This document shows positions 37,649-57,327 of a stretch of DNA of 64,000 bases, in pieces (the first letter of the stretch is position 1; every line of letters begins with the position of its first letter). The DNA is taken from IMG/VR virus record IMGVR_UViG_3300017655_000275. One strand, written 5' to 3'. This stretch comes from a virus (taxonomy: Duplodnaviria; Heunggongvirae; Uroviricota; Caudoviricetes). The position numbers and the translations under genes were made by a program. The notes beneath the pieces are model-generated. The model was not told the origin of the DNA. It saw nothing but the letters and a program-made list of their open reading frames with translations, and did not search any database.

Positions 37649-37654
37649 TCCCGT

Positions 37655-40931: not shown

Positions 40932-40951
40932 CGTAAATCAAGGAACCCGTC

Positions 40952-41485: not shown

Positions 41486-41487
41486 TC

Positions 41488-42033: not shown

Positions 42034-42079
42034 GGACGGTCGTGCGAAAATGGATTGTCATGTTGAAAAGGAAGTGCCC

Positions 42080-42592
42080 ATGAAAATCGTTATCCTCGTG
42101 CATCCTGGTTCGGTCTTTGTGTCCGCTGCCGACCAGGTGTCCGCCAGCCTTCTCGATCCGGCGATCGATGCGATGGAAGATCTCATCGATATATCTGATG
42201 GATTGATCGTGATCCATGGGTTCCTGAGCGAGCACATGTCGCGCGGCGACCGCTCCTGGGTCGATGATCTGATGAAAGCCAAATCAGCGGCTGGACAGAT
42301 CGCCTGGAACCTCTGGGGGTGCGACGATGGCAGCGTACCGTCGGACAAGTTCTGGCCCGAAAAAGATATCTTCGAACATCAGACGGATGCCGCCCGAGCC
42401 CTTCACGAGTGGCTGCCGGAGAATGCAGAAATCACAGTGACTGGTGCCTGGGCTTGCGTTGACGAGCCAGGTGCGCTCGGTTGTGTAAATTCCGTCGCGC
42501 AAGTGCTGCGTAAGGCAGGGAGAACCGACGTTCGCATACACGAGGGCGCGGTCATGGATGCCTGGATAGGAGATGATGATCCGTCGCCATGA
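42080..42592 (+). CDS. hypothetical protein
   Basis: Start MKIVILV with an AAAGGAAG SD. GTGCGAAAA motif 38 nt upstream. Confidence 0.45.
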   Translation: MKIVILVHPGSVFVSAADQVSASLLDPAIDAMEDLIDISDGLIVIHGFLSEHMSRGDRSWVDDLMKAKSAAGQIAWNLWGCDDGSVPSDKFWPEKDIFEHQTDAARALHEWLPENAEITVTGAWACVDEPGALGCVNSVAQVLRKAGRTDVRIHEGAVMDAWIGDDDPSP

Positions 42593-42614
42593 GACATTGC
42601 CAGCCGATCCCCGA

Positions 42615-43130
42615 TCAGGGGACGAGATCATCGGCCGGCTCACCGACCAGCTCCGCGCGGATGCGATTTCCGAATTCGCGGTCGTAGCCAACCGCGGTCC
42701 GCACATGGGTCAGCCCGTAATCTAGCGCGGCAACGACGCATCGATGCCAGCCGTCAAGAGGAACCACCTTACCACCCTCGAGCTTGACGATGATCGGGCT
42801 CTGCTGGATCGCGACCTCGGCCCCGCCTGACTTCGTCATCCATTTGCGGACAGATCTCCAGCGCATGGAAGCTTCCGTTGCCGTCTCACCGTCGAGACGA
42901 ATGCGGTCGTCGATCCGTTCCGGCGGGAATATCTCGGTAATCGGGAAGTCGACAATACACCAGTCGAATTCATCGATCTCGTCGGGATGGAGGATGTAGC
43001 CCATGTCCAGCACTCTGTCGATCGGAAAGGGCTCGGCCTCCTCCATGATCAACTCCGCGAGGCGTTCATGGCTCGCGATCGGCAATAGTTGGAAAGCGGC
43101 ATTTCCAGAAACATCCACAGCGTCGTTCAT
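42615..43130 (-). CDS. ParB/Srx-like nuclease-domain protein
   Basis: VPLDGWHRCVVAALDYG (DGxHR motif). The track N-terminal 88 aa were rejected as a compositional extension. Confidence 0.4.
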   Translation of the reverse strand: MNDAVDVSGNAAFQLLPIASHERLAELIMEEAEPFPIDRVLDMGYILHPDEIDEFDWCIVDFPITEIFPPERIDDRIRLDGETATEASMRWRSVRKWMTKSGGAEVAIQQSPIIVKLEGGKVVPLDGWHRCVVAALDYGLTHVRTAVGYDREFGNRIRAELVGEPADDLVP

Positions 43131-43185
43131 CTCACGGTCCCGTTCAGCATGCCTGACGGATATATCTGGAAGAGAGGAAAAACGT

Positions 43186-43443
43186 TCACGGCTGATGGTC
43201 TCGAAAGAGACCATCGTTAACAAGGCCAAGGTCCGACAGTTCGACGAAGCCGACGGGACAGATGCGAACGAATCCGCCATCGTTGATCCAGGCTCCTCCA
43301 GGCATGATGCCATCCGACCAGCGCGCGATAGCTGCTGGAGCGCCAAATGCTCCGGAATCGGAGCCATCGGAAAGCAGCATGATCCAGCGGCCATCCTTGG
43401 CCTTCTCCAGATCCGCTTCGAGGCCCTTGTGCATCAGCGGCAT
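43186..43443 (-). CDS. hypothetical small protein overlapping the stop of the DUF4258 gene (TAATG)
   Basis: 85-aa ORF whose start overlaps the reconstructed stop of the IS-disrupted gene. Confidence 0.35.
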   Translation of the reverse strand: MPLMHKGLEADLEKAKDGRWIMLLSDGSDSGAFGAPAAIARWSDGIMPGGAWINDGGFVRICPVGFVELSDLGLVNDGLFRDHQP

Positions 43444-43445
43444 TA

Positions 43446-43571
43446 CGTTGCCTCTTTATTCAAGCTTTGCATCGCCTTCCATTTCGCCAACTGGATACGC
43501 GCCTGGGCTCTGTGTTCCTGCGGGACGGTCAGGACGGTGACGATAGCATCTCCCTTCACCGCATAGAGAAG
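43446..43571 (-). pseudogene. 3' part of a DUF4258 (RelE/BrnT-fold toxin-like) gene split by the IS3 insertion
   Basis: After removing the IS and one AAG copy, the reading frame continues as ...KAYLGANDLLYAVKGDAIVTVLTVPQEHRAQARIQLAKWKAMQSLNKEAT. Confidence 0.55.
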
Positions 43572-43627
43572 TGAATAGCCCCATGTTTCGTGGACGCCTT
43601 CTTCGCTAACTTTGAGGCAAGGAGGCC

Positions 43628-43900
43628 ATGATGGGCACGGGCAATTTCACTGACGACTTCAAGCGCGATGCTGTCGCGCAGATCACGGAACGGGGTTATC
43701 CGGCAAAGGAAGTTTCGGCACGGCTGGGTGTGAGCACGCACTCGCTCTATGCCTGGAAGCGCAAGTTCGCGAAGGCGGTGTCGGGTGACACGGAGAAGGA
43801 TGCCGAGATCCGTCGGCTGAAGCGTGAGCTGGTCCGGGTGTCGGAGGAGCGCGACATCCTAAAAAAGGCCACCGCGTATTTCGCCAGGGATGCAAAGTGA
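43628..43900 (+). CDS. IS3-family transposase OrfA (HTH)
   Basis: 90 aa. Slippery A AAA AAG heptamer at 43862-43868 near its 3' end. Confidence 0.8.
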   Translation: MMGTGNFTDDFKRDAVAQITERGYPAKEVSARLGVSTHSLYAWKRKFAKAVSGDTEKDAEIRRLKRELVRVSEERDILKKATAYFARDAK

Positions 43901-44772
43901 GATACGCGTTCGTAGCCGAGCATCGGGGTCAGTTTTCGGTGCGGGCGATGTGCCGGTGCCTGCGTATCCAGCCGAGCGGGTTCTACGCGTGGCTGAAGAC
44001 ACCGCTGAGCCAGCGGGCGCAGGAAGACAGGCGCCAGACCGAACTGCTGCAGAAGGCTTGGGCCGAGAGCGGCAAGGTCTACGGCTACCGCAAGCTGCAT
44101 GACGATCTGGTCGAACAGGGCGAAAGCATTTGTCCGAACCGCGTTTCCCGACTGGCGCAACTGGCGGGGATCAAGGCACAGATCGGCTACAAGCGCCGCC
44201 CCGGCAGCTATGGCGGCAAGCCGTCGGTCGTGGTCGACAACACCCTCGACCGGCAGTTTGATGTCGAGGTTCCGGACAAGGTTTGGGTAACCGACATCAC
44301 CTACATCCGGACGCAAGAGGGGTTCGCTTACCTCGCGGTGGTCATCGACCTGTATTCCCGGCGCGTGGTCGGCTGGTCGATGCAAAGCAGACAGACGACA
44401 GATGTCGTCCTGCAGGCCCTGCTCATGGCCGTCTGGCGGCGCAAGCCGAAGAACAAGGTGCTGATCCATTCAGATCAGGGCAGTCAGTTCACCAGCATGG
44501 ATTGGGCTGCGTTCCTGCGCGCCCACAATCTTGAGCATTCGATGAGCCGCCGCGGCAACTGCCATGACAACGCCGTTGCCGAGAGCTTCTTCAACCTGCT
44601 CAAGCGCGAGCGGATCAGGCGCAGAACCTACCGGACCCGCGAAGACGCAAGGCAGGACGTGTTCGATTACATCGAGATGTTCTACAACCCGAAGCGCAAA
44701 CATGCGAGGAATGGGATGTTGTCGCCCGCCGAGTTCGAGCGGCAGCAGAAGATGAGACGTGAAGGCGTCTAA
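43897..44772 (+). CDS. IS3-family transposase OrfB (DDE catalytic domain), expressed as OrfAB by -1 frameshift
   Basis: VWVTDITYI contains the first catalytic D. rve-like region. Overlaps orfA in the -1 frame. Confidence 0.8.
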   Translation: MRYAFVAEHRGQFSVRAMCRCLRIQPSGFYAWLKTPLSQRAQEDRRQTELLQKAWAESGKVYGYRKLHDDLVEQGESICPNRVSRLAQLAGIKAQIGYKRRPGSYGGKPSVVVDNTLDRQFDVEVPDKVWVTDITYIRTQEGFAYLAVVIDLYSRRVVGWSMQSRQTTDVVLQALLMAVWRRKPKNKVLIHSDQGSQFTSMDWAAFLRAHNLEHSMSRRGNCHDNAVAESFFNLLKRERIRRRTYRTREDARQDVFDYIEMFYNPKRKHARNGMLSPAEFERQQKMRREGV

Positions 44773-44790
44773 GAAACTCGGGGCTATTCA

Positions 44791-44979
44791 AAGATCGTTC
44801 GCCCCCAGATAGGCTTTCGAATGATGCAGCATGCCCAGATGGTCGACGAAACGGCGAAGCCGGCCGCCCATTTCCGTCCCCGGCATCATCGTCTCGACGA
44901 CCTCGCTCAAGCTCTTCTCGGCTGCCCGTTTGGGAATGCCGCCGCGTTCCTTCAGCCTTTTGGTTGCGTGCCGGGTCAC
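44791..44979 (-). pseudogene. 5' part of the DUF4258 toxin-like gene interrupted by IS3
   Basis: GFVTRHATKRLKERGGIPKRAAEKSLSEV resembles the DUF4258 N-terminus. A GTG start in a GTGA overlap with the upstream 99-aa gene. The frame ends at a TGA created by the IS right end. Confidence 0.55.
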
Positions 44980-45275
44980 GAATCCGCCTCCGTCTCGAAT
45001 TTCTCGATCCTGATCCGCCAACTGCCAGATGGCACGCCGCGAACGGTCAGGTTTTTCACCTCGATCTCGATATCCTCCGCGCCCATTTCATTGGCCTTGC
45101 TGATCAGATATCCGGCAACCGCGGTCTCACCGCTGGCCTTGCCGTCATAGGCAGTCATGTTCGCGAATTGCCGGTTCAGGGCGTCTCCATAGAAGATTCC
45201 CATCGGGAAGAAGGTCTCGACAAGCCAATTGATCGGTTTTCGCAGCAGGCGCTGCGCCAGGTTATGCTGTGCCAT
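44976..45275 (-). CDS. hypothetical protein, upstream partner of the DUF4258 gene (possible antitoxin)
   Basis: GGGAGG SD 7 nt upstream. 99 aa. Confidence 0.45.
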   Translation of the reverse strand: MAQHNLAQRLLRKPINWLVETFFPMGIFYGDALNRQFANMTAYDGKASGETAVAGYLISKANEMGAEDIEIEVKNLTVRGVPSGSWRIRIEKFETEADS

Positions 45276-45966
45276 TCTTTGCCTCCCGGCTCTCCAGAAA
45301 GTCCTGAAACACGTCCAGATCGCCCATCCTGCAGCGGTAATGCATCGCGGGCGGACCCTGCACCTCCGAGGGGTGGCGTGTCATGTGATGGCCTGTCTTC
45401 GGCTGTTCCAGTTCGAGGCTGGCGGGTGCGTAAACCTGGCCTGGGAAATTGAAGGAGATCTCCGCCTCGATCATGGTCATGACACCCTCGATCTTCCTGA
45501 CATTCGCTGAAGGGCGGAAATCCCCCGTCCTGATGATCTCCACATCACCACATCGCTTGCGGATCATATCCGCCATCATGTCGAAATAGGCCTCGCTGAA
45601 CGCCGTCTTTCCGGCTCGGGAGGCCAGATCCTCCATACGGCAATGATGACAGCAATGGATGGCAAGATCGTAGAAGCCTACGACATCTTCGCTTCGCATT
45701 TCCTCATCGTCCAGGCTCCCCGAAGAGAGGCTCATGCCGCAGCCGTCACAGTCGAGGATCCATCCTTCATCGATCAGAACCGATGCGGGGATCTTCCCTC
45801 CCTCATAGATATCGAGGTTCTCGGCGCGCCTGACGACGATCGCATCCTCATCTGGATCCATGTCGAGAACGGTCTGAGCACCACGGGTCTTCGCCTCCTC
45901 CATCGTCTGAGCGAAGACGATACCACCTGTGTTTTCATGGTGTTCGGTTACGATGAAGGCGGGCAT
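45262..45966 (-). CDS. hypothetical Cys/His-rich protein (CDGCG...CCHHC)
   Basis: 234-aa ORF. The 3' end overlaps the next gene by 14 nt. Confidence 0.4.
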   Translation of the reverse strand: MPAFIVTEHHENTGGIVFAQTMEEAKTRGAQTVLDMDPDEDAIVVRRAENLDIYEGGKIPASVLIDEGWILDCDGCGMSLSSGSLDDEEMRSEDVVGFYDLAIHCCHHCRMEDLASRAGKTAFSEAYFDMMADMIRKRCGDVEIIRTGDFRPSANVRKIEGVMTMIEAEISFNFPGQVYAPASLELEQPKTGHHMTRHPSEVQGPPAMHYRCRMGDLDVFQDFLESREAKNGTA

Positions 45967-46023
45967 CCAATGACCTCGAGTTGCGCGTATGGATTGCGGT
46001 GACGGTCGCTTGCGCCTGACCTG

Positions 46024-46623
46024 TCACGAATGACCGGTCGGCATCGCAGCCGGCGACAGGAACTTGCGGACGATATCCGTAATCCGATCCTGGTGGAGCC
46101 AGACCGGCGGATCCTCTTCTCCGGCCTTCGTTTCGATCTTCCTGACCAGGTTGGCGAGCAGTATCTCCTCGGTGCCATCACCCTGAGCTCCGGTCGCAGT
46201 CATGCCAGACTGTCCGGACCTGACCTTTTCACTGAGGCGAGAGATTACCTCCGAAGCCCGTGAGGGCCAGAAATCCGGGGCCAGGTCATCCACCCAGGAA
46301 CAGAAACCGCGCGTGAAGGCCAGGCTGTTCTTCCTGTCCGCCCAACCACAAATCCCGACGAAACCATCCCGATTGAACGTAACGGCTTCCCGGTTGTCGA
46401 AATAGTCGGAGCTGCAGCGGATCTCGACAATTCGCCTCCCTCCGATACCGACGATCCGGATGCGCCCACCGACTTTTATGTCCCGCATATCCTCGCTGGT
46501 CGACCTGATAGATCGGTTGAGGTGTCTCACCAGAAGACGGAAATCTTCCCGATCAAGATCCTCAATGGACAGGCCGCTGGAGGCGAGATACTCCCTTGCG
46601 TGACAGCGGGCATGCAGGCTCAT
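46024..46623 (-). CDS. hypothetical protein
   Basis: Start at MSLHARC. ATGA overlap with the ASCH gene. Confidence 0.4.
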   Translation of the reverse strand: MSLHARCHAREYLASSGLSIEDLDREDFRLLVRHLNRSIRSTSEDMRDIKVGGRIRIVGIGGRRIVEIRCSSDYFDNREAVTFNRDGFVGICGWADRKNSLAFTRGFCSWVDDLAPDFWPSRASEVISRLSEKVRSGQSGMTATGAQGDGTEEILLANLVRKIETKAGEEDPPVWLHQDRITDIVRKFLSPAAMPTGHS

Positions 46624-46919
46624 GCCGTCTGTTCCTCCACCATGCGCAGACCGAGGACACACCAGCCTGGCGCAATTCCATCCTGACCGCCCTGCTGAAC
46701 GAATTCGATGCGGAAGCTCTTCCTGATGGAGTTCCGGGTCTGAGGATCCATTTCAGCATAGCGACCCGTGTCGTCCATCATGCGATAGACGATGATGTCC
46801 CCCCGCTGAAAGTCGGCATGGACCGGTCTTGTGTCGAAGGAGCGATCGCCGGCCGCGAGCAACTCGAAGCGGTGCTTGATCAGGTCCAGCTTGTGAATGC
46901 GGGTCATCGATATCTCCAC
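46620..46919 (-). CDS. ASCH (PUA-like) domain protein
   Basis: IKHRFELLAAGDRSFDTR...FQRGDIIVY matches the ASCH pattern. Confidence 0.5.
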   Translation of the reverse strand: MEISMTRIHKLDLIKHRFELLAAGDRSFDTRPVHADFQRGDIIVYRMMDDTGRYAEMDPQTRNSIRKSFRIEFVQQGGQDGIAPGWCVLGLRMVEEQTA

Positions 46920-47006
46920 ATGAGAATTTGTTCGATGTTACCCGATCGCCTGTCAGAAAGGCAAACAATTTCACATGGCGCAATGCCGTTGTATGCTGGT
47001 CGCCGA

Positions 47007-47516
47007 TCAGAGACCAGGTGCATCCTCCAGGTCCTGGCCTGGCGTCTGTCCCGCCTCGATGATCTCCAGGGTTCCGCGCTCTGGAAGCACCACCGGCGCA
47101 CCCCAATAGTTCACGCCAACCCGGTTCAGAGCGTCCCTCCAGCCATCAGCTGATGGCACCGAAACGATGCCATTATCATCATAGGTCGGAAGGATATCGG
47201 AATACTCGACCCCATCCCGGTCGATATTGATCCACTCCGCTCCCAAGCCGCGCGCAAGCGCCTGGATCAGCACCAGATCCGGATGGCGTTCAGCAAGAGG
47301 CTTGAAGAGCCCCGCAGTGAAAGCGCGATCGAGGGGTGCATCATCGCCCCGATAGGAGTTCACCAGGAACCCTTCCTCCCGGATAGCAATAGACGGGCCC
47401 TCGGACATATCACCCTTTTCCGCCTCGATCCTCTCGATCGTGTCACGGGAAAGATGTGCTGTCGAAATGGTGAGGATCGTGGCTTGCTCGATCCCGAATT
47501 CGTTCTGCTTTGTCAT
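47007..47516 (-). CDS. hypothetical protein
   Basis: 169 aa. Inverted TTTTTTTCGCAT motif upstream on its strand. Confidence 0.4.
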   Translation of the reverse strand: MTKQNEFGIEQATILTISTAHLSRDTIERIEAEKGDMSEGPSIAIREEGFLVNSYRGDDAPLDRAFTAGLFKPLAERHPDLVLIQALARGLGAEWINIDRDGVEYSDILPTYDDNGIVSVPSADGWRDALNRVGVNYWGAPVVLPERGTLEIIEAGQTPGQDLEDAPGL

Positions 47517-47579
47517 GACGTAACCTCACTGTCGGTCCACACTAATATAGAAGAGCGATGCGAAAAAAATGCAAACCAA

Positions 47580-48131
47580 TCAGGGAGCGGGAGATGTATC
47601 GAGCTCCGTTTCCGGAGGGGATATCGAAGTCCAGCAGTCGGATACCCATATCTCGATATCTTCGGGCGCGATCGATCTGGAAACGAACCAGCAGCCATCG
47701 GCCTCCCTCGGATCTGGGTTCCTGTCCTGCAACCTATCTTCCTTGATCCTGAGCAGGCAGGGGCGCGTTTTCGACATTTGCACCGCATAGAACTCCGCAG
47801 CCCGGATCGTGTCACAAAAGAAGACCCGATCCTGCCTGTGGAGCGCATATCCGTCCTTGGCCCAGGAGCTTTTCTTGTTGGGTGCAAGTCCTTCGATCCC
47901 GATCAGGCGAGCTCGGGACATCGATGTCCCGTGATAAAAAAAGCCAGCTTCGGTGATGGGAATGGGAATTCCGCTTGCCGCCGCCTGAGATGCAATCATG
48001 TCACGTTGCTCTTGCGTCATCCTGAACAACTCGGTGGGAGATATCTTCTCTCTGACGACCCACGCATTGAATCGCCTGCCTTTTGCAGCGATCCTGTCCA
48101 ACTCGAAACGGTCCATGTCCGGCGCCCTCAT
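47580..48131 (-). CDS. Tpt1/KptA-like ADP-ribosyltransferase-fold protein (divergent paralogue, different N-terminus)
   Basis: FFYHGTSMSRARLIGIEGL compared with E. coli KptA FLYHGTASRFLDEIKKQGL. Confidence 0.45.
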   Translation of the reverse strand: MRAPDMDRFELDRIAAKGRRFNAWVVREKISPTELFRMTQEQRDMIASQAAASGIPIPITEAGFFYHGTSMSRARLIGIEGLAPNKKSSWAKDGYALHRQDRVFFCDTIRAAEFYAVQMSKTRPCLLRIKEDRLQDRNPDPREADGCWFVSRSIAPEDIEIWVSDCWTSISPPETELDTSPAP

Positions 48132-48865
48132 CAGTGCTCGAAACCAGGAGTCGCATCATCGTCGATGTCAGGATCGATCCCCAAATCCCTGATCGCACCA
48201 TCCGGATCCTCCGGCGGCCAGATCCTTTCCTGTTCGGCATGGATCAGATGAAGCCCCGGGAGCTCGCCCCGCGGGTCCAGAGCCAGGGACCAGCCATGAT
48301 CTTCGGCGACTTGGTAAAGGCGTTCCTGCCGCACCATATCGATACGCTCCACCATCGGGAACTTCATGTCCCGGAACTCCTCGTAGCTTCCCATCCGCGG
48401 ATGGGATTTCCCCAAATCCGTGAGTGCCCAGGATCTTGCCATGCTGGTGCGGGTGTTGTCGTCCCAGACCGGGCGGACGAACCCTTTCGTCTGCAGCTCA
48501 TCGAGCGCCATCATGGCTGTCTGATGAAGCTTGATCTCCACATTCGAGACCGTGAACACCCGATCCCTGTCGCCGAACTGGCTGAACAGGACGGCCTTCG
48601 CCGCAGGGGAGATATTGGGCAGGTCCAGGACATCCCAGATCAACTCGCGCGGGGGGCTCTTGTCCTCCCATGCGACAGCCTTTCCATCGGGGTAGACGTG
48701 ACCATGCGATGTTTTCCCGACCTCGACAAAGGAATAGGCGTCGCCCACAGCAATTTCGTGTTCCTCGACCAGCCTGTTGAAGATCTCCACAGGCTGGTCG
48801 TCAAGGCCAGTCCTGGCAATGATGGGGTCGCGACCGCGTGCGCGTAGAACGTATTTTTGTGCCAT
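48131..48865 (-). CDS. hypothetical protein
   Basis: Start MAQKYV. The stop overlaps the downstream start by 1 nt. Confidence 0.4.
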   Translation of the reverse strand: MAQKYVLRARGRDPIIARTGLDDQPVEIFNRLVEEHEIAVGDAYSFVEVGKTSHGHVYPDGKAVAWEDKSPPRELIWDVLDLPNISPAAKAVLFSQFGDRDRVFTVSNVEIKLHQTAMMALDELQTKGFVRPVWDDNTRTSMARSWALTDLGKSHPRMGSYEEFRDMKFPMVERIDMVRQERLYQVAEDHGWSLALDPRGELPGLHLIHAEQERIWPPEDPDGAIRDLGIDPDIDDDATPGFEH

Positions 48866-49052
48866 GTCGATCCTCATCCATCAGCATGCCTTCAAGTTAG
48901 TCCGGCCTGTCGAAAAACCCATAAGCCTCGGTGAAAAACGCGACGGGACCGGTTTCCGGACGGTGTTTGCAACCACCGCCGGACCTGGTCCCGCCACTTC
49001 GCTCCCGCCGTTCCAGATACGCGGACCGGGCGCGCAACTCAGACACTGAGCC

Positions 49053-49643
49053 TCAGTGCATCTTGCCTTTCAAATGAATCATCACGCATTGAAATTCACC
49101 GTCATCAATCGACACCCGGGGGCCGGCCGCCTCCGCCTCGAGGCCACACCGGCTGAAAAACCGTGGCCAAGTGGCATCGGTCAGTGCGATGAGATGAAGT
49201 GCTCCCAACTCACGGGCTGTTTCAATGATCGATTCCACAAGACGCATTTGCACCCGGCGCCGGCCGCCTTGGGGGATGGCGTGATCGATGAAGACGCGGG
49301 TCAACTCCCAGGTATTCTGGTCGACCGGCGCTTCTGAATCCAGAAGATTCTCCGGGATCGACCCGCCAAGAATTCCGTTCTGGGCGTCGCGGATCATGTA
49401 ACTGTAGCTGCCGCATACCGCCGTGGTCGGAGTCAGACGGAATCCGGCAAGCACGCGCTCACTGTCGTGAATCGCGATCCACCTGCTCATCGGCGTATCG
49501 TATTGGTCGAATTCCATTCCATCGGTTTCCGGAAGCTGCCACTTCCGACGGTCGATGAAATGTTGCTTCCTCGCGCGAAACAAATTCGCGAAGAGCTCCC
49601 CATGTTTATGGATGTTCGAATAGGATAGGGTGGTCGTCTGCAC
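49053..49643 (-). CDS. luxI: acyl-homoserine-lactone synthase, LuxI family
   Basis: LFRARKQHFIDRRKWQL...EFDQYD, RLTPTT and ELTRVFI resemble LuxI conserved blocks (R24/F28/W34/D45/D48/R68-equivalent). Confidence 0.7.
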   Translation of the reverse strand: MQTTTLSYSNIHKHGELFANLFRARKQHFIDRRKWQLPETDGMEFDQYDTPMSRWIAIHDSERVLAGFRLTPTTAVCGSYSYMIRDAQNGILGGSIPENLLDSEAPVDQNTWELTRVFIDHAIPQGGRRRVQMRLVESIIETARELGALHLIALTDATWPRFFSRCGLEAEAAGPRVSIDDGEFQCVMIHLKGKMH

Positions 49644-49727
49644 GAAAATCGTTCCTGTTCAGCAAAAAGTTGATCGTTATTGGATCGGGATTTACGGATC
49701 TGGCCTTCAGACGCTGCCTCAGCGACG

Positions 49728-49991
49728 TCACGTGCGGCAAGCCAGCGTCAGAATATGCGGCTTTCCCTGTCCGCTCTTGCAATTTTCCTCGTCGCAGATC
49801 CTGATGTCCTGGATGCGCGGCCGGTCGCGCAGGGCCGTGTAGAATGGACTTGCGACTGCAGAAGCGGCACATTCCGCCATGGCTTCGGCTTCTGCCACGC
49901 TATGAGCATTGAAGGCGCTTCCGCGGAAAGCCTTGCGGACCGCATCGGCGACAGCCTCCCTGACCTGGAGATAGGCATCGACGTCAGTCAT
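49728..49991 (-). CDS. hypothetical small protein
   Basis: ATGA overlap with the downstream gene. Confidence 0.35.
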   Translation of the reverse strand: MTDVDAYLQVREAVADAVRKAFRGSAFNAHSVAEAEAMAECAASAVASPFYTALRDRPRIQDIRICDEENCKSGQGKPHILTLACRT

Positions 49992-50800
49992 GGCTGAACC
50001 TCGTCCTCGATCTCATCCTCTTCCAGATTCTGGATCCATCCGGCCCAGGCTTCTTCCTCTGCCTGGCTCAAGTCGAAACCGAGATTGCGCAACTCCGACA
50101 GCATCTCGCGGCCGCCCTCTGCGGTTTCATCGAAATCGATGATCGCAAGACCGCCGAGAGACAGGTTGGCCTGGCCGCAAGAGGGAAAGGCGGGCTTGCG
50201 TTCCTCCTCGCTGGCTGCCTGATGAACCTTCAGGTATTCCAGAAGGCGGGGATCATCCTCACTGCGGACATCGCGTGGAAAAACGAGTTCGAATTTCTCA
50301 CGGGCGGTTCTTTCGATTTCGGTTACCTCGTCATAGGACCGTTCGCCAGGGAAGGTGGCCGTGGCAAATGACGCATTCAGCCATTCGACCGATGCCCCAT
50401 GGGTCTCCAGGAAGAACTCGACATCCTTTCTGGAGATGGTGAGCTCGTATGAGGTGATCAGGCCCGCCTCGGAGAGTTTGCGCAGTTGGGCATGATGGCT
50501 GTCCATGTCGGCATAGACATTCGAGAAGGCGAGGATCCTCGTCAGATCCGTATAACCCTGCATACTGAGGATGGATCCGGTCATGAAATCCGTCACGATC
50601 AACCCGTATCCAGAAGGATGAAGACCATCCGACTTCTGCTTGCCATCGGTGATTTTCCCGATCGCATACTCGATGCCTGCGTTTTCCCCGCGGGCAAATG
50701 CCGGTGTCAGCATCCCGGTCGGAAGCGTGTTCGTCCAGCCTGTAAAGCATCGGACTGATCCGGTCGCATCCCTGATGACCCAGTTGAGTGTGCCGCCCAT
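49988..50800 (-). CDS. hypothetical protein
   Basis: Start chosen at M9 (GAAAGG SD), which removes a 23-nt overlap. Confidence 0.4.
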   Translation of the reverse strand: MGGTLNWVIRDATGSVRCFTGWTNTLPTGMLTPAFARGENAGIEYAIGKITDGKQKSDGLHPSGYGLIVTDFMTGSILSMQGYTDLTRILAFSNVYADMDSHHAQLRKLSEAGLITSYELTISRKDVEFFLETHGASVEWLNASFATATFPGERSYDEVTEIERTAREKFELVFPRDVRSEDDPRLLEYLKVHQAASEEERKPAFPSCGQANLSLGGLAIIDFDETAEGGREMLSELRNLGFDLSQAEEEAWAGWIQNLEEDEIEDEVQP

Positions 50801-50801
50801 C

Positions 50802-51359
50802 TCAGGACCTTTCCATATCTTCATGAATGGGTTTCACGATTGGCGGTAGCAATGCATCGATGCGGGACCGATCGACAGGGTTTTCGAGAGGATAGATACC
50901 GTATTGTGCCTTCAGGTAGCGATTTGCCGCCGACAGGATATCGTCCTGCGCCATTTTCACCGTGTATTGAAGCGCCTCCTGGTCTGAAAGGCGGGGCAGC
51001 GCCCTGATTTGCCCAGAGTAGATCATCGCCGAACGGTCACCATCGATGCGTGGTGTCAGGTAATCTCCATCCCTGTCCCGGCCTAACGCCCAAGTGTCGA
51101 TGATCCCGGCCGCCCGCCGGATGGTCGCTTCTTCGATACCGGCGACAAGCTCCTCGGCCTTTTCAGCCCGATAGTTTTCCCTGACCCAGTCGACCTGAAG
51201 GGCATCGCACTGCTTCTTCAGGCGGTCGACCTCCGCCCGAAGCTCACGGCTTTCATCCGCGAGCTTTCGCAGCTGCGCCCGGGACAGGACAACCGGCCCG
51301 TCACCGTTCAGGATAATCCCGATACGGGTCTCCGGGTCATCTTGAGGTTTTTCACACAT
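50802..51359 (-). CDS. hypothetical protein
   Basis: 185-aa ORF in the co-directional array. Confidence 0.4.
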   Translation of the reverse strand: MCEKPQDDPETRIGIILNGDGPVVLSRAQLRKLADESRELRAEVDRLKKQCDALQVDWVRENYRAEKAEELVAGIEEATIRRAAGIIDTWALGRDRDGDYLTPRIDGDRSAMIYSGQIRALPRLSDQEALQYTVKMAQDDILSAANRYLKAQYGIYPLENPVDRSRIDALLPPIVKPIHEDMERS

Positions 51360-51990
51360 CGGAGGCGCTCAGTTTCTGAAGGAAGTTCCTGGTCTGCTCC
51401 GATGATCCGCTATCCTGAAGCAACGCCTCGGCAACTGGATCACCGCGTTTCAACAGGCCCAGGATGACATTCGCGGCAAAGCGCGTCAGGGCCGGACAGG
51501 CGGCCGGTGTCGTGACCGTCAGTGCCTCTCCAACAGGTTTGACCGCTTGTTTGCTGCGGATTTTCTCGACCTTCGTCCAGACCCTGGAGAGTTCCTTTTC
51601 GCCGGCATCATGCATGTCGATGCCTTGCTTCAGGCAATAGGCGGCCAGTGTCAGCATGACGCCGCCGACCTCCTGCTCGGGCTCCCCCTTGGGACGTGAC
51701 CAGACATAGCCGATCATCGCCGCGGCGCGCTCGATCGGATAATCCCCGGACTGAAGCAGCTCGAGGACCTCTTCCAGGAGGCGATCACCTCGCTCGAGGT
51801 GATCGTTGCTGATCTCGGGTCCGAAGCAAGCCTCCATCCATGGTGCTACCCGAGACTGGAGACTTCCCTCAGCCTCCCGCATCGCCGATGCCGAAGAAGG
51901 CGCCCAATACAGCTCCCGTCCATCGGGAAGCCGCCCCACGGGACGATAAGGCGCCTCAGCAGCGCTGTCGCTCGCTGCGGCCTTCATCAC
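51352..51990 (-). CDS. MazG-like nucleoside-triphosphate pyrophosphohydrolase-fold protein
   Basis: DHLERGDRLLEEVLELLQ (E..E..E then D pattern). Confidence 0.35.
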   Translation of the reverse strand: MMKAAASDSAAEAPYRPVGRLPDGRELYWAPSSASAMREAEGSLQSRVAPWMEACFGPEISNDHLERGDRLLEEVLELLQSGDYPIERAAAMIGYVWSRPKGEPEQEVGGVMLTLAAYCLKQGIDMHDAGEKELSRVWTKVEKIRSKQAVKPVGEALTVTTPAACPALTRFAANVILGLLKRGDPVAEALLQDSGSSEQTRNFLQKLSASDV

Positions 51991-52217
51991 AAGCCATCCC
52001 GGTTGACGCTGTGCATGACGCAGTCGCCGCTGATGACCCAGCCGAAGCGATCCCCGTCACCGCCCCAGCCACGACCGTAATGATTGTCCATCCTCGCACA
52101 TTTACATCCCAGAGCCATGGCGGCATCGCTGCCTGGCTTTGGCGGGAGAGCGGAACCACCGGGAGGTGGCGCATAGGATGACTGCATCGCGGGGGATGAC
52201 TGAACTGACATGCTCAT
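51987..52217 (-). CDS. hypothetical small protein
   Basis: ATGA overlap with the MazG-like gene. Confidence 0.3.
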   Translation of the reverse strand: MSMSVQSSPAMQSSYAPPPGGSALPPKPGSDAAMALGCKCARMDNHYGRGWGGDGDRFGWVISGDCVMHSVNRDGL

Positions 52218-52229
52218 CTTCGCCTTTCC

Positions 52230-52430
52230 TCAGTCCGGCCACTCGACACGAACCCGATGGCCGCAGCTGTCGCAGCGATAGTCGTCGCAACATCCGTCCG
52301 AGCAGCCACCGTCATCGGCCATCGGCCGATCGCAGCATTGCGGCCCTTTGACCCGACCGGCATCCAGGACCTCGGCGGGCTTGTATCCGCTCGGAGCTTC
52401 GCGGATCTCCGTATTCGACATGTATGGCAT
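52230..52430 (-). CDS. hypothetical small Cys-rich protein
   Basis: 66 aa with 10 Cys (CCDRP...CSDGCCDDYRCDSCGH). First gene of the minus array. Confidence 0.35.
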   Translation of the reverse strand: MPYMSNTEIREAPSGYKPAEVLDAGRVKGPQCCDRPMADDGGCSDGCCDDYRCDSCGHRVRVEWPD

Positions 52431-52480
52431 TCCGACCTCTTACGTTTTCCTGATCATACAACAGCCCAACCGTGACTGTC

Positions 52481-52489
52481 ATGCGAAAA
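52481..52489 (+). promoter_or_regulatory. ATGCGAAAA motif instance in the divergent region 52431-52621 (a second copy, ATGAGAAAA, at 52593-52601)
   Basis: One member of the recurrent motif family. Confidence 0.3.
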
Positions 52490-52621
52490 TGTATTGGAGA
52501 ATCCGTATCGATGAGAGCGGGTCGTTGATCTGTAATCAGGATCACGCAATGATTTCAGCGCTGGTCAGGCGAAAACCTGCGTGATAATCTGCATGAGAAA
52601 ATGCCTCAAGAGGAAAGCACC

Positions 52622-53602
52622 ATGGGTCTCATTTCTGCCATCGTCTGGCTGATCGTCGGTCTGATCGCCCTGAGCCTCGCGCTCTCGATGATCGTCATCA
52701 CCCCGCAGCGCCACGTGAAGGTTCTCGAAACCTTCGGTAAGTATTCCGGCTATCGCAAGGCGGGCCTGAGCTTCAAGGCGCCCTGGCCGATCCAGGCCGT
52801 GTCCGCCGTGAAATCGCTGCAGACCATGGAGATCTCGCAGGAGGTTTCCGTGATGTCGGCAGACAACGCCTCGGTCATCCTGCCGATCCGGATCCAGATG
52901 ACAGTCGATGAATCGGATGTGGAAGCGGCAACCTACAAGCTCGACAATCCCGCGCAGCAGATCAAATCATATGTGACCAACCAGGTCAGGGCCACTGCCG
53001 GGCGGATGAAGATGATCGACCTGTTCAAGGCGCGTGATGCCTTCAAGGACGATATCGAGCAGGAGCTCAGCGCGAAGATGGCCGAATGCGGCTATCGGAT
53101 CATCGACGTACTGGTCGACGATCCGCAGCCTTCGGCCGAACTCCGGGCGGCATTCGAACGTGTCCTGGCCTCGGAGCGGCTGAAAGAGGCGGCAATCAAC
53201 GAGGCCGAGGCAAACAAGACCATGCTGGTGGCAACCGCAAAGGCCGAAGCAGAAAGCGTGCGTGAAAAAGGGAAGGGCCTGGCCGATTTCCGCAACACCA
53301 TCGCAGAAGGGCAATCTGCCGCCATGAAGAAATTCATGGATGGGACCGACCTGACGCATAAGGATGCCCTTTCGTTCATGCTGGCCGTCAACGAGATGGA
53401 AGCGCTGACGACTGTCGGCCAGTCGGGCGGCAAGGTGATCTTCGTGACGGGTTCTGCCGGCGGGCGGGACAACAGCCCGGCGATGTTTCCGCTTCTGGCG
53501 GCAAACCTGGAGCCTGGCAGTGCAGCGCCGAAATCCGCGGCAAAGCCACCGCGCAAACCATCGGCTGTGAAGGCCGAGAAGGTGATCGAAGCAGAAGCTT
53601 GA
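52622..53602 (+). CDS. SPFH/Band-7 (stomatin/prohibitin-like) membrane protein
   Basis: N-terminal TM helix, then SPFH-like region. AGAGGAAAG SD. ATGAGAAAA motif 29 nt upstream. Confidence 0.65.
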   Translation: MGLISAIVWLIVGLIALSLALSMIVITPQRHVKVLETFGKYSGYRKAGLSFKAPWPIQAVSAVKSLQTMEISQEVSVMSADNASVILPIRIQMTVDESDVEAATYKLDNPAQQIKSYVTNQVRATAGRMKMIDLFKARDAFKDDIEQELSAKMAECGYRIIDVLVDDPQPSAELRAAFERVLASERLKEAAINEAEANKTMLVATAKAEAESVREKGKGLADFRNTIAEGQSAAMKKFMDGTDLTHKDALSFMLAVNEMEALTTVGQSGGKVIFVTGSAGGRDNSPAMFPLLAANLEPGSAAPKSAAKPPRKPSAVKAEKVIEAEA

Positions 53603-53620
53603 TCCAACGCATATGAGAAA

Positions 53621-53660
53621 ACAATATAGCCGGCGGAGTTCCCGCCGGCTATATTGTTTG
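53621..53660 (+). terminator. Rho-independent terminator (16-bp GC-rich stem)
   Basis: Stem acaatatagccggcgg / ccgccggctatattgt, loop agttc, then ttg. Confidence 0.5.
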
Positions 53661-53679
53661 CAACGGTCGAGGAACCTCA

Positions 53680-53922
53680 ATGGCGAAAAAGCTTCTCTGG
53701 GTCGAAAACGAGGGTGAGCCACCCTACGCGGAGGCTGATACGGGCACCTATGTGATCAATGAACATTACCGAATGGTCGAAAGGATCATCGGCCATGGCC
53801 GATCGTTTCAGACGCGACTGGAACGCATCAGCCTCGAAAAGGGAGCAAGCCTGGAAGACCTCAAGACGGCTGCGCAGGACGATATGGACGCTCGCATCGC
53901 TCAATGGTCAGGTGTGGCATGA
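53680..53922 (+). CDS. hypothetical small protein
   Basis: GAGGAAC SD. Confidence 0.4.
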   Translation: MAKKLLWVENEGEPPYAEADTGTYVINEHYRMVERIIGHGRSFQTRLERISLEKGASLEDLKTAAQDDMDARIAQWSGVA

Positions 53923-54344
53923 TCGAAGGGTTCTATTGGCCGGCCGCCGCCGCGGATGCCGAAGCGGCCGCAGCTGAGGAGGTGCGGAGGCTCCTGAAGA
54001 CGCCTTTGCGCAGTTCCGCACTGGATCCAGGGTCATGTTTCGATCCATGGCTGCTCTTCACATCCATCTTCGGCGCCGACGCGTCATTCGATGAATGCGC
54101 GATCGCGGTTCTCGAAGACCTGGAGAAGATGACGGACAGGCGTTGCGACCTCGCCGGGCTTATGTTCAGGGAGATGCTTTGTAAGGCCAGGCTTTGCGAA
54201 TATGAGGAAAGTCCCCATGCTTGTCGGGCTACCTCGGCATTCAGGCCCCTCCTGTCGGAACTGCTTGCCAGATGGAGAGAATTTGCCTCGATGAAAACTG
54301 GATTCCACGAGGGAAACGGAAGAAATCTTCGGCAATCCGCATAG
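53919..54344 (+). CDS. hypothetical protein
   Basis: ATGA overlap with the upstream gene (start MIEGFYW). Confidence 0.35.
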   Translation: MIEGFYWPAAAADAEAAAAEEVRRLLKTPLRSSALDPGSCFDPWLLFTSIFGADASFDECAIAVLEDLEKMTDRRCDLAGLMFREMLCKARLCEYEESPHACRATSAFRPLLSELLARWREFASMKTGFHEGNGRNLRQSA

Positions 54345-54394
54345 ATAGAAAGAAGAAACTGTTCCTGGAGCATTTTCAAGAGGGAAGGCGAAAA

Positions 54395-54778
54395 ATGAAA
54401 ATCCTTGAGCGGATATCGTTCTTTTTCGGTAAAAGAAACAAAGAAAAAGAGCAGTCGGAAAAAACTCCAAAAACTCAAAACCGACTTCCTGGAAGGTCGA
54501 GCTCTGGCCGGAACACGGATACGTCAGGTAATCTCGCCATCCACCAGACATTCCTCAACCTGACCGATCCTGGTCATGATGGGGCCAGAAAATCTGGCAA
54601 TCGACACGATCGGGTAGAGGATCAAGCCGCCGATCGGACCGATGGTGGCATTCAGGATTCCGGCCGGGAGAGTGGTGCCAACTGGTCGGGGAGTTACAGC
54701 AGTTCCTCGAGTTACGACAGCTCCTCAAGTTCCTCGAGTTACGACTCGTCGAGCTCTGGAAGCGATAGCTCCTATTGA
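54395..54778 (+). CDS. hypothetical protein with a Ser/Tyr-rich low-complexity C-terminus
   Basis: AGGGAAGG SD. The C-terminus (SSSSSYDSSSSSSSYDSSSSGSDSSY) is encoded by a short tandem DNA repeat (agttcctcgagttacgac x2). Confidence 0.4.
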   Translation: MKILERISFFFGKRNKEKEQSEKTPKTQNRLPGRSSSGRNTDTSGNLAIHQTFLNLTDPGHDGARKSGNRHDRVEDQAADRTDGGIQDSGRESGANWSGSYSSSSSYDSSSSSSSYDSSSSGSDSSY

Positions 54779-54785
54779 GGCCGGG

Positions 54786-55916
54786 ATGAGGGAAACAGAA
54801 AAGGCTGCCTGGAGCAGATTTACCCAGGATATTCCTGCTGACCTTCACGATGACATCCAGAAGTCGATGTTCGAGCTCGCCCATTATGGCGGATCGCATC
54901 CCTATGTGACCATCACCGACGTCGTCCATCATGACGTGCTGAACCTCAGCGCAGAAGGGATCGTGACAATCGGCGATCGCGAATTCTCCTTTACGATCAG
55001 ATCCGGAAACAATAACGGCTCCGAGCTTCTTGACTGGGATACTGGTAAAGGTATCGATCGAACACCCCCGGTCGTCGAAGTGATCGCACCTGTCTATTCG
55101 CGTATTGCTGAGATCCGGAGTGCGGCAGATGCTGCCGCACTCCTCAGCGAGTGGGACGATGCGCTCGACCCCGCGACGGAGATCGGGAAGAACCTGTCGG
55201 GACTGGCTGGCAAACGTGCCTACGACCGGCATTTCGCTCCAGGCACGGGAACCTCGCGCCATTGGGACCGGAAGGCGGGCGAAAGAGGCTATGAGATCGT
55301 CGAGGAGGATGTTGCCATAGACAGGCGCAAAACCCTCCTGGGGGCTGTTCTCACGGTGCGCCCAACCTACGCAAAGTTGCTGAAGGGGAAGGGTGCCTGC
55401 GCTACTCTCCGGGCCTGGACAAGCCTGCAAACGACACCTGGAGATCTTTCCGAGCGCCTGAACGGCCATCTCGCCGCGGTTATCGACCGACTGTCGCAAG
55501 GCAGGGGAACATGTGTCCTCTATGAGGAGCAGAAGGTCGTCTGGAAAGACGGCTATGAGATCTGCGACGGAATCCAGGCACGAGCCACGAAAGAGCACCT
55601 CGTGATGCGGAGTCTGCGACTGGAACCCATCCCCGGTTTCGACAGGAAAGACCTTCCCGAGAGCATGATTTCCTCCTTCATCAGAGGATTTCCCCATTTC
55701 AGAGAAGATTTCCCGGAACCAATCAGGGTTGATCCACTTCGGGAAGGGGCAAGACTTGTGCTTGAACTGGCGTCCGTTGTCTCCAGGCGGGAAGGGCTCG
55801 ACATACCGCAATCCTTCCGCGATAAGGCCGCGGAAATCGGTTTTACGATCGGATGGATCGACGACATGGCAGCATTGACGCCTGAACTGCAGGATGCGGA
55901 TCTGCCATGCCCGTGA
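54786..55916 (+). CDS. hypothetical protein
   Basis: Start MRETEKA with a GAGG SD. 376 aa. Confidence 0.45.
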   Translation: MRETEKAAWSRFTQDIPADLHDDIQKSMFELAHYGGSHPYVTITDVVHHDVLNLSAEGIVTIGDREFSFTIRSGNNNGSELLDWDTGKGIDRTPPVVEVIAPVYSRIAEIRSAADAAALLSEWDDALDPATEIGKNLSGLAGKRAYDRHFAPGTGTSRHWDRKAGERGYEIVEEDVAIDRRKTLLGAVLTVRPTYAKLLKGKGACATLRAWTSLQTTPGDLSERLNGHLAAVIDRLSQGRGTCVLYEEQKVVWKDGYEICDGIQARATKEHLVMRSLRLEPIPGFDRKDLPESMISSFIRGFPHFREDFPEPIRVDPLREGARLVLELASVVSRREGLDIPQSFRDKAAEIGFTIGWIDDMAALTPELQDADLPCP

Positions 55917-56311
55917 AACACGGGGAAGGCCAAGAGTGGAAACAGGGTTTCGAGCTCGTTTGTGCAAAAGCCGCCGAGAAGCGGGTCACTGTCTCCGGCC
56001 GATGCCTGCTCTCGGGATCCGGCCGCAGGACGTTGATCCTTCAAACCGTCTTCGTGCCGCCAGAGGACAGGGGTTGGGGCATCGGAAGCGGGATCATCCG
56101 GGGTATCCTTGCCTGGGCCGACCAGGCTGGAACGACAGTCAGGCTGACGCCGGACGCGACATTCGCGGGGATGAGCCTGCCGCGCCTGGAGCGTTTCTGG
56201 AGAAGCTTCGGCTTCGTGCCGAACCAGGGTGCCAACGGGGATCCGGTCTTCGCACAGAGCCTGGTTCGGGCGCCTTTGGCAGAAGAAGATCTGGCCGCCC
56301 TTCCGAAGTAA
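55907..56311 (+). CDS. GNAT-family acetyltransferase
   Basis: EDRGWGIGSGIIRGILAWA (motif A). 10-nt overlap with the upstream gene. Confidence 0.45.
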   Translation: MPVKHGEGQEWKQGFELVCAKAAEKRVTVSGRCLLSGSGRRTLILQTVFVPPEDRGWGIGSGIIRGILAWADQAGTTVRLTPDATFAGMSLPRLERFWRSFGFVPNQGANGDPVFAQSLVRAPLAEEDLAALPK

Positions 56312-56375
56312 AGGCGGTGGAAGAGGCTGCTCTCGCTACGGTCGAGAGCCGGGCGGCTGGGACGGGATCGCAGTC

Positions 56376-56834
56376 CTAAAGACCCAATGCCGCCCTGGCC
56401 AATGCGCGCGGATCGTTATGGCCGCCGGCGATCGCCTCCAGGGCGCGTCTCAATTGATCATCGTGCTGAATCGCTGCCTTTCTCGGAGTTCGGGTTCGGG
56501 GAAGGTAATTCGCCGGCGGTAGGACCGTTCCAGCGACATACCTCGCGATCGAACCATCGCCATCGGGCACCCATTGCAGCGAAACCGGAAACAGCGGTGG
56601 GGTGATCCGTTCCCAATAGTCCGCCGCGCAGGCCGGTTCAAAACCGCTAGGGCCACCACAGGCTGGAGATTTCCGACCGATACGCGAGCCGTCGCGGTCA
56701 TAGAGGACCAGATCCAGGAGAACCGCCTCATCGGAACCCGGATCCCGGTAGACGTCTTTCACCTTCCCGACATTTCTGTGATCGCCACGGGATGCGACCC
56801 AGTCGCCAGGCTTGAAAGGAAACGGCTTCTGCAT
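56376..56834 (-). CDS. hypothetical protein
   Basis: Start MQKPFPF with an AGGAG SD. The track start is TTG. Confidence 0.4.
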   Translation of the reverse strand: MQKPFPFKPGDWVASRGDHRNVGKVKDVYRDPGSDEAVLLDLVLYDRDGSRIGRKSPACGGPSGFEPACAADYWERITPPLFPVSLQWVPDGDGSIARYVAGTVLPPANYLPRTRTPRKAAIQHDDQLRRALEAIAGGHNDPRALARAALGL

Positions 56835-56863
56835 GGCATGATCTCCTGGGTCCGATGAGAATT

Positions 56864-57274: not shown

Positions 57275-57327
57275 GGCTTTTCCTTTATTTTGATTGAGCA
57301 AAGGGGCGGATAACCGCCCCGATCCCA

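Follow-up and report, generated by a model that had tools for sequence, protein, structure and literature searches.

A LuxI-family synthase gene of the Paracoccus PdeI clade, without a detectable LuxR-type receptor, on a putative phage-type element of about 200-230 kb

The viral record IMGVR_UViG_3300017655_000275 (64,000 nt, referred to below as the window) carries a gene (luxI) for a synthase of N-acyl-homoserine lactones (AHLs), from the clade that contains PdeI, the quorum-sensing synthase of Paracoccus denitrificans. Chromosomal members of this clade mostly lie next to the receptor gene pdeR, in a core locus of the Paracoccaceae; the window copy lies outside that locus, among genes of a phage-like element whose host would be an uncultured relative of Paracoccus. 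With moderate confidence, we explain it as a captured synthase, kept by selection, that would make its carrier a receptor-independent sender of a host-type long-chain AHL.

The synthase, its clade and its composition

The gene and its immediate upstream region comprise:
49053..49643, minus strand, PdeI-clade LuxI-family AHL synthase gene, 196 amino acids (aa), GTG start
49652..49656, minus strand, putative Shine-Dalgarno sequence (AGGAA, read from the sequence), 8 nt upstream of the GTG start
49644..49727, 84-nt gap upstream of luxI, containing neither a sigma-70 consensus promoter nor a pdeR-type operator core

The boundaries of the luxI open reading frame (ORF) are those of the public gene calls on four independent contigs. 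Its product scored 57.6 bits against the Pfam family PF00765 (Autoind_synth; cutoff 24, E=1.6e-15), in an alignment spanning profile positions 8-160 of 183, and also matched the PHROG family phrog_31881. Its nearest relatives of solved structure are, by sequence, the AHL synthases TofI, BjaI, LasI, RpaI and MesI, with TofI as the top match (E=1e-11). We then modeled the protein with AlphaFold from a 34-sequence alignment (pLDDT 76.6, pTM 0.75). The ten best fold matches of the model in the PDB were all AHL synthases (TofI, MesI, BjaI, LasI and RpaI; TM 0.65-0.71, E 4e-13 to 4e-10), and generic GNATs followed about five orders of magnitude behind (E 1e-7 or weaker). When aligned with TofI, the protein carries R25, F29, W35, E44, D46, D49, R69, E113 and R116. 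These correspond to the canonical catalytic and S-adenosylmethionine (SAM)-site residues of LuxI, EsaI and LasI, i.e., R25, F29, W35, E44, D46, D49, R70, E101 and R104 in LuxI numbering. The equivalent of F84 is Ile96 across the whole clade, and the Ser preceding the last Arg is Thr115 in the window protein, likewise in the majority consensus of its relatives. In addition, the window synthase keeps every one of the 69 alignment columns that show 95% conservation or more across 81 relatives.

The preliminary description of this DNA had recognized the LuxI family from conserved blocks, an assignment that the Pfam score, the AHL-synthase fold matches and the kept residues uphold. Together, the score, the modeled fold and the invariant residues confirm, at the level of sequence and model, that the ORF encodes an intact LuxI-family AHL synthase; the enzyme is probably functional and is predicted to release an AHL. 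A closer identity as TraI was rejected, since the protein reached 34 bits against a cutoff of 250 for the NCBIfam TraI equivalog; with scores this far under the cutoffs, it is a LuxI-family protein but not TraI.

Among 5.8 billion proteins searched, identical copies came from metagenome contigs only, the largest being 229.7 kb. The next-best matches, which include proteins of named Paracoccus genomes, are 68-70% identical, and below these the matches run into a very large family whose members, 196 aa long, come from Paracoccus, Rhodobacter and further Paracoccaceae. The window synthase is 62.8-70.4% identical to its Paracoccus-clade relatives, with a median of 66% compared to 73% inside the clade, and a neighbor-joining tree nests it within the Paracoccus clade on a moderately long branch. 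Plasmid-borne LuxIs, by comparison, are only 30-45% identical to it, and a scan of IMG/VR with the protein returned only an unrelated 31-kb viral contig (45% identity). CerI of Cereibacter sphaeroides was considered as a member of the same clade and excluded, as it groups with SsaI-type synthases.

The base composition of luxI is that of its surroundings rather than that of its clade. Its GC content is 56.7% and its GC content at third codon positions (GC3) is 67.5%, against element means of 58.0% and 68.1%, while the Paracoccus-clade relatives average a GC3 of 84% (range, 73-92%). The start codon is GTG instead of the ATG found in 83 of 87 relatives. Full compositional amelioration, combined with the absence of any change in the 69 invariant columns, indicates a long residence under purifying selection. 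For contrast, the tyrosyl-tRNA synthetase (TyrRS) encoded by the same element has changed 47 of 245 near-invariant columns. Amelioration without loss of residues is the strongest in silico argument available here and indicates that the enzyme is probably used. The DNA sequence of luxI is identical in all contigs that carry it (at least four, from different datasets). One apparent sequence variant (P0345) was discarded because it differs only in how the GTG start was translated, as Val.

These data bear directly on the possibility that luxI is a silent or decaying passenger without current function, which we regard as very improbable. The GTG start and the failure to recognize a promoter directly upstream would fit a passenger. 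However, the frame is intact, every invariant column survived complete amelioration, contigs from different datasets carry the same DNA, and the AGGAA motif stands at the right spacing.

The pdeR-pdeI locus and the search for a receptor

To place the window copy, we examined the genome context of its relatives in 80 sampled genome loci. In 70 of these, the relative sits between rplQ, a 203-aa Autoind_bind gene, and mgsA/rarA, and a receptor gene is found near it in 75. The ancestral locus of the clade is thus rplQ-pdeR-pdeI-mgsA, a core locus in Paracoccaceae. In P. denitrificans, pdeR is Pden_0786, and the paired synthase PdeI makes N-hexadecanoyl-homoserine lactone (C16-HSL), which suppresses aggregation and biofilm in Paracoccus (PMC9399729; PMC11536421). 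The P. denitrificans PdeI/R regulon comprises about 1,000 genes, and C16-HSL opposes aggregation in this species (PMC11536421). Published primers for pdeR encode MSSRAEIN... and ...AKDYRLL, which are the termini of the receptor family of the locus (PMC9399729). Because these termini agree, we assign P. denitrificans PdeR/PdeI to this locus family, on the basis of the receptor and not of the PdeI sequence. PdeI and the window synthase share the LuxI clade, the length of 196 aa and the clade-invariant residues. They differ in setting, as the PdeI clade occupies the core locus with pdeR adjacent, whereas the window copy stands outside it, with neither pdeR nor the pdeR promoter/operator core. They also differ in composition, with a GC3 of about 84% in the Paracoccus clade against 67.5% here, and in the start codon, which is GTG here. 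The window gene lies in an array of ORFans on a phage-like element.

All three partner genes are missing from the window, and this copy has lost its core-locus context. Searches of the window by tblastn with the cognate receptor, RplQ and MgsA returned only noise (best E 3.1, 0.99 and 0.57, respectively). Conversely, when all window proteins were searched by tblastn against the flanks of the 80 synthase relatives, no other window gene was found beside them.

The receptor search extended beyond the window. On the largest contig carrying the gene (ENA ERZ27256359 k141_493614, 229.7 kb), the analysis covered the window plus about 10 kb to its left and about 19 kb to its right, i.e., approximately 93 kb. 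In Pfam scans, PF03472 and PF00196 were absent from the called genes between 9.3 kb and 63.5 kb, and the 150 longest remaining six-frame ORFs, all of at least 98 aa, showed neither Autoind_bind nor GerE. A PdeR-family hidden Markov model (HMM), built from 74 receptors, was compared with the six-frame translation of the window and both flanks (92.9 kb; every segment of 50 aa or more) and reached a best E of 3.4, compared to 3.5e-100 for the positive control. HHalign comparison of the receptor profile with all 242 ORFs of at least 90 aa gave at best a 24% probability over 13 residues, in a noncoding frame. The statement in the preliminary description that the 64 kb hold no LuxR-type receptor is borne out by all four approaches (Pfam, tblastn, HMM and HHalign). 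That description had also named a luxR just outside the window as the finding that would speak against an orphan synthase, and the HMM detected none in the flanks. At the sequence level, the receptor-less state is confirmed for 93 kb of the contig.

In the Paracoccaceae loci L005-L085, the pdeR start codon is immediately preceded, at about 40 nt, by an element that shows strong conservation. The derived core reads TTGAC-N17-YTGTCTAAAAAG-N2-ATG; across Paracoccaceae it takes the form TTGAC-N17-(C/T)TGTCTAAAAAG-N2-ATG, often with the palindrome TGTCT-AAAA-AGACA. The element resembles a promoter/operator core giving a near-leaderless transcript and could be where PdeR autoregulates. The window contains four matches with two mismatches, against 2.9 expected by chance, and none is near luxI's array. 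With the core at chance level, nothing suggests that the element listens through PdeR.

Synthase genes without a neighboring receptor also occur among the genome relatives. Four of the 80 loci (L036, L038, L039 and L063) have no detectable PdeR-type receptor within 8 kb. L036, L038 and L039 are nonsyntenic, while L063, from a Marivivens metagenome-assembled genome, reads rplQ-luxI-mgsA without pdeR, so that the receptor is gone from the ancestral locus itself.

Among the closest described phage-borne systems are the xre-luxR-luxI modules of Phaeobacter and other roseobacter prophages, reported in a 2026 bioRxiv preprint (PMC13345283). As the window copy would, these modules place a horizontally mobile AHL synthase gene on phage DNA in Rhodobacterales and interact with host quorum sensing. 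They differ in being full synthase-receptor systems with an XRE repressor, which make private signals, share less than 30% identity with the host pair and have lysogeny under their control. No such module was found in the luxI array, which has no PF03472, PF00196 or XRE-type helix-turn-helix match, and the synthase is of the host type instead. In the same preprint, the legend of Figure S6 has a symbol for phage-harbored luxI outside operons, and orphan-luxI clusters were excluded from the analysis (PMC13345283). A private channel of this general kind could operate on our element if a receptor were encoded in the roughly 136 kb of contig outside the coverage, or if a non-LuxR protein of the array read the signal, with lysis-lysogeny or transfer under its control. 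The documented lysogeny-controlling LuxI/LuxR modules of Rhodobacterales prophages (PMC13345283), the coverage of about 93 of 230 kb, an array full of ORFans and a faint winged-helix (PadR-like) signal (E=0.097) in the 244-aa gene downstream of luxI all leave room for it. We nonetheless consider it unlikely, because the known modules have luxR and xre adjoining luxI and are less than 30% identical to the host system (PMC13345283), whereas the window synthase is 63-70% identical to the host-type clade and keeps every invariant residue, in an array with no xre, no luxR and no pdeR-type operator core.

The carrier element and the proposed role of luxI

The position of the window on its carrier is:
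1..64000, accessory region of a phage-like element of about 200-230 kb; window position w corresponds to w+135262 on ENA ERZ27256359 k141_493614

Contigs of 195, 199 and 230 kb carry the element. Its contigs include ENA ERZ27256359 k141_493614 (229,702 bp) and ERZ27256370 k141_25898, and one is in JGI 3300017565. About 65% of the window genes are ORFans, and its mobile genes comprise an IS200/IS605 element, a separate IS605-type OrfB (TnpB-like) gene and an IS3 element. Pfam scans detected no integrase, relaxase, type IV secretion system (T4SS), traR or phage structural domain in the window. Evidence on the nature of the carrier came from the flanks. The left flank encodes a NAPRTase, an FtsH-like protease, a second class I aminoacyl-tRNA synthetase (aaRS; 337 aa), AbiEii and an IS605 element. 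The right flank encodes a Bax1-I protein split by an insertion sequence (IS), seven ORFans, an M15 peptidase, a topoisomerase IA, three tail-fiber genes and UvrD. The three tail-fiber genes are consecutive (615, 943 and 481 aa), carry BppL_N and Peptidase_S74 domains and match dozens of tail-fiber families in PHROGs (E down to 1e-29), while the M15 peptidase matches endolysin families. These tail-fiber and endolysin-type genes lie 13-20 kb to the right of the window (locus L098, 2380-8847). The preliminary description had spoken of a phage-like mobile element; the tail fibers, the endolysin-type gene and the PHROG matches support this for the contig, although the window itself holds no phage hallmark. 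An integrative and conjugative element or the leading region of a plasmid was rejected as an identity for the window, given that relaxase, T4SS and integrase are absent and that tail fibers lie on the same contig. Megablast of 40-64 kb of the window gave no match among phages and matched only the IS3 element among plasmids.

The topoisomerase IA comes from a small family of 104 proteins, whose members are encoded on contigs of 129-280 kb and by a few isolates of Rhodobacterales. In one of these, Paracoccus litorisediminis (L101), the topoisomerase, the M15 peptidase and the next four or five ORFans follow the same order as on the contig (29-63% identity); upstream of the topoisomerase are a tail-fiber gene and a UvrD helicase. 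The closest matches of the topoisomerase in cultured phages are from two cyanobacterial jumbo phages (25-30% identity). Such a backbone suggests that Rhodobacterales harbor a family of very large phage-like elements not described before, and the window is most probably the variable accessory region of one very large phage-type element.

The element also encodes the TyrRS mentioned above at the right edge of the window (61968-63209, plus strand). It keeps the HIGH and KMSKS motifs and is 60-64% identical to the TyrRS proteins of Paracoccus, which are themselves 75-99% identical to one another.

Several observations weigh against the explanation we favor. Capsid, terminase and portal genes were not seen in the approximately 93 kb, and scans of IMG/VR with the TyrRS and the topoisomerase did not find relatives of the element. 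It carries several IS elements, which is unusual for a strictly lytic phage and suggests long residence in cells. The divergence of the TyrRS would also fit a host from an unsampled genus. A receptor could lie in the part of the contig beyond the 93 kb covered, and the sigma-70 scan recognized no promoter directly upstream of luxI. In view of the unseen capsid, terminase and portal genes, the coverage of about 93 of 230 kb and the IS load, the carrier could turn out to be a prophage or phage-plasmid, or an island beside a prophage.

The last of these options leads to another account of the gene, in which the DNA is the chromosome of an unsampled Paracoccaceae genus whose pdeI was relocated to an island beside a prophage, with pdeR remaining elsewhere (e.g., at the rplQ locus). 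Both the TyrRS (60-64%) and the synthase (63-70%) are Paracoccus-like yet distant, as they would be in another genus; some genome relatives (L036, L038, L039 and L063) are themselves receptor-less or relocated; and orphan luxI genes are common in roseobacters (PMC3824088). Other evidence makes this relocation unlikely. The only housekeeping-type genes in the 93 kb are a TyrRS, a TrpRS-like gene, an FtsH-like gene, a NAPRTase and a topoisomerase, each isolated among ORFans, and none is in its usual chromosomal neighborhood. The 47 changes in 245 near-invariant TyrRS columns are atypical for an essential single-copy gene, the synthase nests inside Paracoccus and not outside it, and the relatives of the backbone topoisomerase are on contigs of 129-280 kb.

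In the explanation that we favor, by contrast, luxI would descend from a gene taken up from a Paracoccus-type chromosome, with pdeR and its promoter left behind. The capturing element would be a very large phage-type mobile element of about 200-230 kb, in which selection has since maintained the gene as an accessory gene. It would be transcribed with or within a long co-directional array and end at its own terminator-like hairpin. Because the chromosomal gene stands directly behind pdeR, whereas the element copy would be under element promoters, output would be set by carriage or infection and not by density. Carrying or infected cells would then make a host-type long-chain AHL at any density, and PdeR-type receptors of the host, presumably present, and of neighboring cells would read it. 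The element would thus talk without listening, presumably to its own benefit.

A bolder version, which we advance only tentatively, is that a jumbo-sized phage or phage-plasmid domesticated the core synthase of its host lineage and now forges the C16-type "high density" signal without a receptor. If so, infected and neighboring cells would be pushed into the quorum state (dispersed, nonaggregating, with a regulon of about 1,000 genes), which would favor spread of the element. Such a forgery would differ from the private phage channels and the eavesdropping receptors described so far.

Stand-alone luxI genes on phages have been noted before. Roseophages RDJL Phi 2 (gp55, annotated as an AHL synthetase) and Dinoroseobacter phage R26L (gp44 in PMC11981692) carry LuxI-like genes which, like the window copy, have no LuxR annotated within 4 kb and are seen as auxiliary genes and possible modifiers of host quorum sensing. 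These phages are siphoviruses of 63-80 kb, and their luxI genes, known from annotation, adjoin the terminase and encode proteins 27-35% identical to the window synthase. The window copy, in contrast, derives from the core synthase of the host lineage and resides in a much larger element. Orphan luxI genes are also common in roseobacter genomes (PMC3824088). Examples without an adjacent luxR include sscI of Ruegeria sp. KLH11, the roseobacter H/I/J topologies, AgpI of Archangium gephyra and the LuxI solos of Sphingomonadaceae. All of these are chromosomal, those of roseobacters often lie beside histidine kinases, and sscI arose by recent duplication of a resident gene, whereas the window copy is diverged, ameliorated and located in a phage-like accessory region. 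The mirror image is provided by phage LuxR-type receptors, those of Aeromonas phage ARM81ld and others, which are reported (mBio 2019, PMC6456758) to be likewise half of a LuxI/LuxR circuit, held by a mobile element as an interface to host signaling, here one that listens without talking.

Since stand-alone phage luxI genes and orphan luxI genes have already been described, the arrangement is of a known kind and not unprecedented. Particular to this case is a PdeI-clade synthase of the host lineage, intact through full amelioration, on a much larger element of an undescribed family. If the enzyme is active, this would be a clean natural example of a mobile element that bears the sender half alone of the core quorum-sensing circuit of its host lineage, complementing the listening-only phage receptors and the private-channel LuxI/LuxR pairs of prophages. 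Carriage or infection could then reset density-dependent behavior in Paracoccus-type populations, which matter for denitrifying biofilms and wastewater systems.

The luxI array and other genes of the accessory region

The array and its candidate signals are as follows:
44788..52430, minus strand, co-directional, tightly packed array of 15 genes (public gene calls), mostly ORFans
43628..44772, plus strand, IS3-family insertion sequence, bounding the downstream end of the array
46024-46623, gene matching phrog_24658 (PHROG)
46620-46907, DUF3850 (ASCH-like) gene (Pfam)
47007-47516, DUF5983 gene (Pfam)
48934..48997, minus strand, terminator-like element after luxI: long GC-rich hairpin (48997-48940) followed by U5 (48938-48934)
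51352-51987, gene matching phrog_14118/8593 (PHROG)
52453..52482, minus strand, candidate sigma-70-like promoter for the array (ATGACA-18-TATGAT, 10/12)

Read from 52430 down to 44788, luxI is about the seventh gene of the array. Besides luxI, Pfam and PHROG matches are confined to DUF3850, DUF5983, phrog_14118/8593 and phrog_24658, with PHROG families matched by 4 of 10 array proteins. A protein search with 14 array genes concatenated found no syntenic counterpart in annotated plasmids or phages and returned separate matches only for a 212-aa gene and LuxI. The IS3 transposase is single-copy in the assemblies looked up. The candidate promoter at 52453..52482 is the sole good match for the array, in a region where such matches are no more frequent than chance predicts.

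On its two sides, luxI has the largest gaps of the array (84 nt and 187 nt). The hairpin in the downstream gap is kept in the centroid structure; a simple terminator scan missed the element, and the 190-nt gap as a whole is no more stable than its shuffles (z=-1.2). Judged by sequence, the gaps and the hairpin would make a moron-like arrangement, though one without a recognized upstream promoter, and luxI equals its neighbors in composition. Rfam gave no match across 44-53 kb. Directly downstream of the hairpin lies a 244-aa ORFan (48131-48865, minus strand) with no homologs in Pfam, PHROGs or the PDB. Its faint winged-helix signal falls on residues 124-158, which makes it the sole candidate DNA-binding protein of the array.

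Of the neighbors named in the preliminary description (ASCH, Tpt1-like and MazG-like genes on one strand), only the ASCH-like gene (DUF3850) was confirmed, and the other two labels were wrong or misplaced. The Tpt1-like label within the array has no Pfam or PDB support, the genuine Tpt1/KptA gene being 42 kb away at 7000-7530. The gene labeled MazG-like (51352-51987) matches no MazG family or structure and only PHROGs of unknown function.

Among its other genes, the window encodes an SNF2 helicase, an NrtR-type Nudix protein, AbiEii/DUF6036, RlaP, a PAPS reductase, several GNATs, two SPFH proteins, PTH2, SNase, Tpt1/KptA, DUF3850 and DUF5983. Genes related to translation and tRNA include:
4262-4336, tRNA-Arg(CCT)
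7000-7530, minus strand, Tpt1/KptA
27258-28289, plus strand, RlaP
locus L090 4450-5463 (left flank), second class I aaRS, 337 aa

Together with the TyrRS and PTH2, these look like the translation and tRNA-repair toolkit typical of very large phages.

A restriction-modification gene and three genes within about 10 kb of it are located at:
14215-17139, minus strand, MmeI-type (type IIL / BREX PglX-like) restriction-modification enzyme, 974 aa, all five MmeI domains detected
20443-21099, AbiEii/DUF6036 nucleotidyltransferase
22987-24741, SNF2 helicase
25459-26196, IS605 OrfB (TnpB) gene

LuxI enzymes consume SAM. Conceivably, luxI could therefore act as a substrate drain on SAM or acyl-acyl carrier protein, for instance blunting SAM-dependent restriction or BREX-type defenses, in a region that is rich in defense and counter-defense genes (MmeI-type, AbiEii, Macro, ART, Tpt1 and NAD salvage). 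We hold this to be extremely improbable, as it has no precedent and the strict conservation of clade residues, also outside the SAM site, argues that a specific AHL product matters.

A cluster of NAD/ADP-ribose conflict genes occupies 9329-12520 and 7981-8508 of the window, with the NAPRTase gene just to the left of the window (L090 1-178). It includes:
10055-11152, Macro domain fused to a DprA-like domain
11162-11770 and about 7981-8508 (the latter on the minus strand), two ART-PolyVal proteins
11810-12520, NrtR-type Nudix regulator

A 581-aa LPD5+LPD1 protein (39064-40809, minus strand) aligns with positions 902-1434 of the 2793-position phrog_616 (E=2e-88) and looks like a free-standing fragment of a giant polyvalent protein. 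The gene for the Bax1-I (YccA-like) membrane protein (63563-63985, minus strand; L088 8324-10270) is split by an IS5-type (DDE_Tnp_1) insertion just past the right edge of the window, and this insertion breaks the assemblies of two other datasets at the same point.

Finally, 10 of about 87 called genes end in Met right before the stop codon (ATG followed by TGA, TAA or TAG), against about 2 expected at a Met usage of about 2.5%. These genes are 18963-19625 (minus), 26470-26979 (plus), 35661-36587 (minus), 27258-28289 (plus), 30295-31305 (plus), 41488-42033 (plus), 19636-20067 (minus), 37982-38644 (minus), 1736-3544 (minus) and 60933-62897 (minus). In three of them an acidic tail precedes a final (A/E)PGM, and two have ...MVM as their last residues. 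The excess could be a shared C-terminal signal, a translational-coupling sequence or paralogous tails.

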